9,856 nucleotides of DNA, from positions 1 to 9,856 of the IMG/VR virus record IMGVR_UViG_2698536570_000006; one strand, written 5' to 3'. Positions 1-1,499 of the stretch are shown piece by piece. Both the position numbers and the translations under genes were made by a program. Numbering within the stretch: the stretch's first letter is position 1; each line of letters opens with the position of its first letter. This DNA comes from a virus (taxonomy: Duplodnaviria > Heunggongvirae > Uroviricota > Caudoviricetes). Under the pieces are notes generated by a model. The model made no database searches. It was not told where the DNA came from and saw only the letters and a list, made by a program, of their open reading frames with translations.

Positions 1-1086
1 AACAGCCTCCACGAATGCCGATTTGCCAACGGTGTTCACACTGCGAACGTAAAAATAATAATTATGGCCCGGCCTGATATTGATACTGGCGGCTATCCAG
101 TACAGCGCCGTGCCAAGATAGCGTGCTGTGGTTTCAACCTGCCTGATATCCGCAATCCGCTTTTCCGAGAACCAGAACTCAAACTGTACCGTCGGATCAT
201 AAACCGCAAGATGCGGCGTGGCGGTTATCTGAAAATAGCCCGGCGTCAGCTCAATCCGCGACGGCGCTGCCGGTGCGGCAATCCGGAACGATACCGACGC
301 CGGATCGCCCTGCTGCCCCCACGCATTTACTGCCCGGACTGTCAGCCTGTAGTTCCCCAGAGCCAGTTGTGTGAAGCGGTAAGTGGTTTCCGTCGTCCGG
401 GCCGTGCTGACCAGCCGCTCACTGCCGTCATCCGCTGCCACGGTCAGGCGAAGCAGGAAGCTCACGCCCTTCACCACCTTCGGCGTGTCCCAGCGGGCCA
501 GCACCTGGTATTCCCCGCTGTCTGCGGTGACTTCGGCGGTCAGATGCTGCACCGCTGGCGGCGTGACACCATTCACCGTGCCGCTCTGGTTCGGGTAGCA
601 CTGTTTCACATCGATGATTTCGGTGTATGACGACCAGAGCGTTTTGTTCTGCAGCTGGTCTGTGGTGCTGTCCGGCGTCATCCTGCGCATCCGTATACTG
701 AACGGGCGCGGCGGCAGGTTACCCACCACCACCGAGGCCAGATACTGCGAGGTGGTTTTGCCCTTAATGGTGATGTCTTTTTCCGTCACCCAGCCACCAT
801 TACGCTGTATCTGAACCAGCAGGCGGACTTCCGACGGATTCCTGTCCCCCTTTGAGGTGGTTTCCACCAGTGCCTGCACGCCGAAGGTAAAACGCAGTCG
901 GTCAATGTTTGCCGACGTGATGGCCCGGGTGATCGGCGTGTCGTATTTCACTTCCGTACCCAGCACCGTCTCGGAGCCGGAGGATTCAAATCCCTCCGGC
1001 GGTGTCTGCTCCTGCTCACCGGCCCGGAACACCACCGTGACGCCGGAGATGTTGGTATTCCCCTCATTGAAGCCTGCCGTCGGAGA
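1..1086 (-). pseudogene. J: Remnant of lambdoid tail-tip host-specificity protein J; 3' end runs off the left edge, N-terminus missing, apparent in-frame internal deletion
   Basis: Minus-strand translation gives ...[46 protein letters not shown]...KQCYPN then directly [36 protein letters not shown]...[35 protein letters not shown]. From memory these match lambda J roughly residues 47-226 and 605-790. The frame is closed upstream by TAG at 1087-1089 and has no ATG. The plus-strand ORFs 64-1090 in the track are antisense to this. Confidence 0.8.
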
Positions 1087-1499
1087 CTAACGTCAGAAAA
1101 GAGAGCATATACATCAATCCAAAGTGATGATGGATGAACATCCCGGTTTCTTCCACCATCACACCGGAAAAGCGACTATGAGGGTAACCCTGCGTCTGTC
1201 AGCACAGTAAAACCCGGTGTGCATCGTTTTTGATTATTCCCGCACACTCACGCATAAGGAATTCCCCGTCGGGCTACGGTCATGGTTAATGCGGGAATAC
1301 GGCGACGATACAGCGCAGCTAAAAGGGTAATAGACGGATAGACCGGTTTATTTCATTCCACAGGATTCTGAGTGTCCCCAACTTCCTCCAATAGTCTGAG
1401 CGTACACCTATATAGTTTTAATTTTCATCAATCCATTTAACTATCGTTTAATTGTTGTCACATAGGATTCTGCCATTTTTAACAATGCAGGATAATAAG

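Follow-up and report, generated by a model that had tools for sequence, protein, structure and literature searches.

The tail-tip gene J at the left end of the window (the whole 9,856-nucleotide stretch of DNA analysed here) is very probably a non-functional pseudogene remnant in a defective DLP12-like prophage at att-lambda, reduced, as judged from sequence comparison, by three microhomology-mediated illegitimate deletions. The first of these, of ~16.0 kb with its ends inside ylcI and at J codon 55, would have removed cos, the terminase, portal, capsid and tail genes and the start of J; the second (1,182 bp, J codons 215–608) would have taken the hub core (Phage-tail_3); and the third (~4.6 kb, between J codon 975 and the start codon of tfa) would have taken the receptor-binding domain, lom and stf. 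Both of the junctions within J are in frame, by chance on this reading, leaving an open J'::Tfa frame of 709–728 codons with neither a native start nor a ribosome-binding site. That the J feature is a pseudogene is already known from public annotation, PGAP having labelled it in both assemblies of E. coli AW1.7 as a pseudogene without N- and C-terminus, while a literature search on AW1.7 prophages returned nothing on the J-remnant locus.

Positions 1–1500 of the window are 100% identical to E. coli AW1.7 in two independent complete assemblies (NZ_CP073624.1 and NZ_CP072539.1), window position 1 corresponding to position 20001 of the annotated AW1.7 neighbourhood, L001. The prophage occupies the lambda attachment site of the AW1.7 chromosome, with ybhB/bioA on one side and ybhC on the other. 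The lambda att core GCTTTTTTATACTAA is present in the neighbourhood as two exact 15-bp copies, compared to 0.02 expected by chance; these lie at L001 16846 and 34053 (window -3154 and 14053), 17.2 kb apart between ybhB and ybhC, and enclose a defective lambdoid prophage of 17.2 kb which contains all of window 1–9,856. In window orientation its genes are a MASE4-GGDEF diguanylate cyclase, tfa, the J pseudogene, the ylcI fragment and iss/bor, followed by rzpD-rrrD-essD, a porin and quuD-ylcG-rusA-ybcO-ninE-ybcN, then by two hypothetical genes, a P22AR C-terminal fragment, ybcK and emrE, and finally by a ren fragment, an outer-membrane protein, IS3 and an integrase that is truncated, with IS3 adjoining or disrupting it. 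The gene table of the 17.2-kb element includes no repressor, O/P replication, terminase, portal, capsid, tail tube or tape measure genes, in contrast to intact relatives, and the same comparison bears out the initial annotation of this DNA in its statement that the terminase, head and tail genes are absent. The element is thus bounded by att repeats at a known integration site and has lost genes essential for excision, replication, packaging and assembly; because of this gene content it is predicted to be non-inducible. The genes that it has kept are the normal content of complete DLP12-type prophages, as judged by comparison with the prophage of S40.

Next to the remnant lie an intact iss/bor lipoprotein gene (1500..1793, + strand) and the lysis cassette essD-rrrD-rzpD with its embedded Rz1 (1825..2995, - strand); the latter is the late operon, and from the arrangement of the genes its read-through would extend to the J' remnant. 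An nmpC-type porin gene (3585–4682, + strand, 365 aa) is intact here, whereas its K-12 DLP12 counterpart is split by IS5. Pfam gives no match at E<=0.01 for the 260-aa ORF at 6938–7720 (- strand), initially annotated as an HNH cassette, although it is Cys-rich, with CxxC…H…N…CxxC-like motifs; the complete S40 prophage carries this ORF too, which marks it as regular phage cargo. A 107-aa ORF at 7895–8218 (- strand) consists solely of the P22 antirepressor C-terminal domain (PF10548) and is probably a truncated antirepressor gene. At the att-lambda end, between the att core at L001 16846 and tfa, the MASE4-GGDEF diguanylate cyclase (L001 17501–18832) is prophage cargo found in a ybhB-cyclase-tfa arrangement in about 713 of the 5,426 complete E. 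coli genomes, and presumably resembles dgcX, described at the lambda attB site of O104:H4. The DLP12-type gene set (emrE, ybcK, ybcN through to bor and ylcI) is situated at att-lambda with perfect cores in AW1.7, and at argU in the S40 relative and in K-12 DLP12 (loci L001, L008 and L014); the two placements reflect integration-module exchange between otherwise similar prophages.

The remnant lies on the minus strand of window 1–1089, where translation gives a TAG (1087–1089, antisense to the ylcI fragment), at the position already reported to close the frame, and then 362 open codons. By BLASTP, remnant residues 8–166 correspond to lambda J 56–214 (156/159 identical, 98%, E=3e-103) and those from 167 onward to lambda J from 609 onward (E=0), and the intact 1159-aa E. 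coli J of ETEC1738 and IAI1 yields the same two blocks at 97–98% identity. The proximal segment (589..1065, - strand) comprises J codons 56–214 and the FNIII-A insertion domain (Pfam FNIII-A_GpJ), and the distal segment (1..588, - strand) comprises J codons 609–804 with two Ig/FNIII domains (Pfam Ig_J and Ig_J_second). BLASTP and the alignments to parental genes therefore confirm the earlier reading, in which J is a remnant in a defective prophage, truncated at its N-terminus and shortened internally by a deletion that keeps the frame. The two-block match on which that reading was based is real, although the ranges given for it, residues 47–226 and 605–790, were about 10 residues off, the match inside the window covering 56–214 and 609–804. 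An inspection of the sequence to the left of the window, suggested at the same time, revealed a C-terminal truncation that is invisible from the window itself: on translation across the edge, the distal segment extends as far as J codon 975, where it passes in frame into tfa (L001 18906–19490), lom and stf being deleted. Opposite the remnant are two antisense ORFs, one of 188 aa (window 64–630, + strand) and one of 450 aa (L001 19278–20630, + strand), which have no independent support as genes; long antisense frames are common opposite G+C-rich coding sequence.

The Pfam domains of the chimeric frame are FNIII-A_GpJ, Ig_J, Ig_J_second, most of Phage_Tail_Tip, and Caudo_TAP. Phage-tail_3 (PF13550), the hub core, which is found at 330–498 in the J proteins of IAI1 and lambda, is gone from the remnant with the deletion of residues 215–608, and Ig_GpJ_C (PF12421), the receptor-binding domain, is present in intact J and missing here. 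In the lambda gpJ structure, closure of the tail tip falls to the hub domains (HDII-HDIV/OB) and LamB binding to the C-terminal domain (PMC11101478). Compared to lambda gpJ and the 1159-aa alleles (IAI1 WP_000515723.1, ETEC1738 WP_115224432.1), the remnant shows 98% amino acid identity over J 56–214 and 74–98% over 609–975, and keeps the FNIII-A, Ig_J, Ig_J_second and Phage_Tail_Tip domains, but it is without residues 1–55, the hub core (215–608) and the distal fibre and receptor-binding domain (976 to the end). Its native start is missing too, as are gene I on the upstream side and lom and stf on the downstream side. The remnant therefore shares homology with functional gpJ/TipJ proteins, but not their hub core, their C-terminal receptor-binding domain, or their native start and position downstream of K/I. 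Because the hub core and the receptor-binding domain have been lost, we infer that the remnant would be unable to act as a tail tip.

The internal deletion, junction 2 (589..591, - strand), was mapped by three-way DNA alignment with parent sequences as an in-frame loss of 1,182 bp, or 394 codons (J codons 215–608). The peptide junction KQCYPN|QSGTVNG had been placed precisely, at window 588/589, and the DNA breakpoint lies in the AAC codon at 589–591; the shared bases are this AAC codon with an ETEC1738-like parent and GT with IAI1. The two matching pieces of J DNA are 2,251 bp apart in intact genes compared to 1,069 bp in AW1.7. The initial annotation regarded the in-frame nature of the deletion as unusual and suggested recombination between J-like copies, but an in-frame result is a 1-in-3 outcome for any one deletion. 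Substrates for homologous or unequal recombination are certainly abundant, with a median of 4 J-like places per E. coli genome, and the patches flanking the allele do look recombined; however, the two sides of the breakpoint have no more than 2–3 nt in common, a search of intact J for direct repeats with the 1,182-bp spacing found none at the breakpoints, and both halves of the gene come from one allele, matching a single intact J at 99.1%. Nor does the short J resemble a naturally short J-family phage protein: a search with a 160-aa query centred on junction 2 gave 326 phage records, each of which matched one half, with none (0/326) covering >=80% of the query, and FNIII-A is joined directly to Ig_J in none of 50,697 phage records. 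Both of these origins are largely refuted and we consider them highly improbable. The 2–3 nt of microhomology, the single parental allele and the lack of a contiguous phage match instead argue for a simple illegitimate deletion at junction 2.

The deletions on either side have the same character. Junction 1 (1064..1069, no strand assigned), where a deletion of ~16.0 kb has brought J codon 55 up against the 3' part of ylcI, was resolved by three-way alignment with the IAI1 prophage and by alignment with the metagenome contig L010; the microhomology is TCA relative to IAI1, and TCATTG relative to an L010-like J (a parent with Asn55). The IAI1 prophage, which occupies the same site in the chromosome, has 16,006 bp between the two breakpoints, an interval that holds the ylcI 5' part, nohD, the terminase, portal, protease, decoration, capsid and tail genes as far as I, and J codons 1–54; deletion 1 also took cos and the J start. 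Homology to intact ylcI-iss begins at window 1064, the right-hand side of the junction, with a 74-nt 3' fragment of ylcI (YlcI/YnfO family; 1064..1137, + strand) that PGAP calls a pseudogene in both AW1.7 assemblies. The remnant had been described as joined directly to the lysis/bor module, and while that is its neighbourhood, the join is not direct, as the ylcI fragment intervenes and iss/bor is about 430 bp away. Junction 3, at about L001 19491 and so to the left of the window, links J codon 975 (…GGNPPV) to the tfa ATG with TA shared; relative to ETEC1738 this ~4.6-kb deletion amounts to 4,636 bp, made up of the J 3' end (with the receptor-binding domain), lom and stf. Across the three junctions, alignment to intact parents gives a microhomology range of 2–6 nt. 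Since J is multi-copy in E. coli genomes, the apparent deletions could in principle be artefacts produced by collapse of repeated J sequence during assembly, but the two independent complete AW1.7 assemblies are identical over all junctions and the same junction sequences recur in independent isolates and metagenomes, which makes this reading extremely improbable.

The chimeric J'::Tfa frame runs for 728 codons from the TAG at 1087–1089, or for 709 codons from its first in-frame start-type codon, a GTG (1033..1035, - strand), from which it forms the ORF at L001 18906..21035. The initial annotation noted the absence of a start codon, and indeed the native J start is gone and this GTG is not preceded by a Shine-Dalgarno sequence. 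The tfa part is full length (194 aa, with its own ATG) and 95% identical to TfaQ of ETEC1738, with the complete Caudo_TAP domain (PF02413, E=2.4e-42), but J sequence now stands where its native GAGG ribosome-binding site lay. When window 900–1900 was scanned for promoters and terminators the counts were at chance level, which gives no support for a dedicated promoter of the frame. The sequences spanning the junctions are KQCYPN|QSGTVNG at junction 2 and GGNPPV|MAFRMSEQ at junction 3, and GGNPPVMAFRMSEQ is one of the two junction-spanning peptides predicted from the frame. In draft genomes and metagenome assemblies, gene callers label the frame as a 570–771 aa 'tail fiber assembly' or 'DUF1983' protein. 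The edges of the internal deletion lie a few residues at most from Pfam borders, which are at about 207 for the end of FNIII-A and at 610 for the start of Ig_J, and a foldable intact product is conceivable from the domain layout.

Among 5,426 complete E. coli genomes, junctions 1, 2 and 3 are each contiguous solely in the two AW1.7 assemblies, and a 26-mer across junction 2 had no match among GTDB genomes (one per species). The same 26-mer was found in one metagenome contig, L010, from the human gut, and the L010 ORF proved on look-up to belong to a 90%-identity cluster of 17 proteins, with members from E. coli KTE100 and several draft isolates. Of these drafts, two (L012 and L013) have an AW1.7-like context with all three junctions confirmed, and differ from AW1.7 at 5–6 positions in 13–19 kb, from which it follows that the carriers are near-clonal. 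An exact look-up of four start variants of the AW1.7 frame gave no match, AW1.7 being one residue off the deposited alleles. In a further E. coli carrier, GCA_964054475.1, an IS3-family element lies in the tfa part of the J'::tfa frame (L016 5002–6230).

The metagenome contigs L010 and L011 have junctions 2 and 3 and lack junction 1; each retains the native J start (MGKGSSKG…) with gene I and tail genes upstream. If these contigs are real, an expressible J'::Tfa gene of 771 aa exists somewhere, and deletions 2 and 3 may, on this sequence evidence, have preceded deletion 1. We rejected a firm order of events and keep this only as a possibility, since both contigs are metagenome assemblies with switching flanks, changing to other-prophage sequence within stretches that are common to several J and tfa copies. 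L010, with a coverage of 1.8x, breaks inside tfa, near codon 47, and from there runs on into a frameshifted ABC transporter (L010 4004–5815) that has no match in the complete E. coli genomes; it is probably a chimeric low-coverage assembly. Of the 1,741 positions shared by AW1.7 and L010, 41 are different, and at codon level there are 28 synonymous and 9 non-synonymous differences, but these are clustered away from the junctions and their variant states are those of intact J alleles. The 28:9 ratio was therefore rejected as a sign of purifying selection, as it reflects clustered intact-J polymorphisms imported by recombination or chimeric assembly.

It may be asked whether the J'::Tfa chimera is instead an expressed, domesticated protein held by selection, comprising FNIII-A, two Ig-like domains, a helical shaft, part of the central fibre and the Tfa chaperone. 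Imaginable roles for such a protein include surface display of its Ig-like domains, action as a decoy, or interference with the tail assembly of superinfecting lambdoid phages, and if the chimera were functional the native-start version in L010/L011 would be its original, fully expressible form. This reading could draw on the two in-frame junctions and the 2.1-kb open frame, on breakpoints near domain borders, on the presence of the allele in several isolates, and on the position of the frame downstream of an intact Q antiterminator and lysis operon. However, the chance of one deletion being in frame is 1 in 3, and that of both J junctions being so is about 1 in 9 and so not significant; the AW1.7-type allele lacks both a native start and a Shine-Dalgarno, and its tfa has lost GAGG; the carriers are so closely related that the open frame has had no time to decay; the frame of one carrier is split by an IS element; and the differences between alleles are intact-J polymorphisms in recombination patches, so that the 28:9 ratio is uninformative on selection. 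We therefore regard maintenance of an expressed chimera as very unlikely. The pseudogene reading accounts for the same open frame through age: the 98–99% identity to intact J indicates that decay is recent, with no stop codons accumulated yet.

Comparison with related elements places the locus among similar cases. K-12 DLP12 shares with the AW1.7 element emrE, ybcK, ybcN, ninE, ybcO, rusA, ylcG, quuD, the porin, essD, rrrD, rzpD, bor and ylcI, and has likewise lost its morphogenetic region, with tfa surviving at the far end. However, DLP12 lies at argU, whereas the AW1.7 element lies at att-lambda with lambda att cores, and the structural deletion in DLP12 extends between a terminase fragment (aaaD) and tfaD, so that nothing of J survives, whereas the one in AW1.7 has its ends in ylcI and at J codon 55 and spares a twice-deleted piece of J. 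Complete relatives with matching flanks exist: the IAI1 prophage at att-lambda has the same right arm as AW1.7, the S40 prophage at argU has the same emrE-to-ylcI block together with all structural genes, and WP2-W18-CRE-03 shares the dgc-tfa end, beyond which it carries stf, lom and J. Pieces of J that have undergone internal deletions and frameshifts also lie beside truncated tail genes in PSJ-23 (L005 5026–7066) and MIN10 (L006 5896–7160), but these have other breakpoints, are frameshifted rather than in frame, and belong to other prophages than that of AW1.7. J remnants are thus recurrent in E. coli cryptic prophages, those of PSJ-23 and MIN10 having decayed independently.

The locus is an example of ordinary recent prophage decay, parallel to that of K-12 DLP12 but independent of it, at att-lambda. 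It is a mild curiosity only in that both J junctions are in frame and near domain borders, leaving a long open frame, and it would gain interest only with proof that the chimeric frame is expressed and under selection. Its value lies rather in being a clean, fully mapped case of a lambdoid prophage reduced, as we infer, by short-microhomology deletions, and in the warning that it holds for annotation, namely that long open frames can persist in very young pseudogenes.
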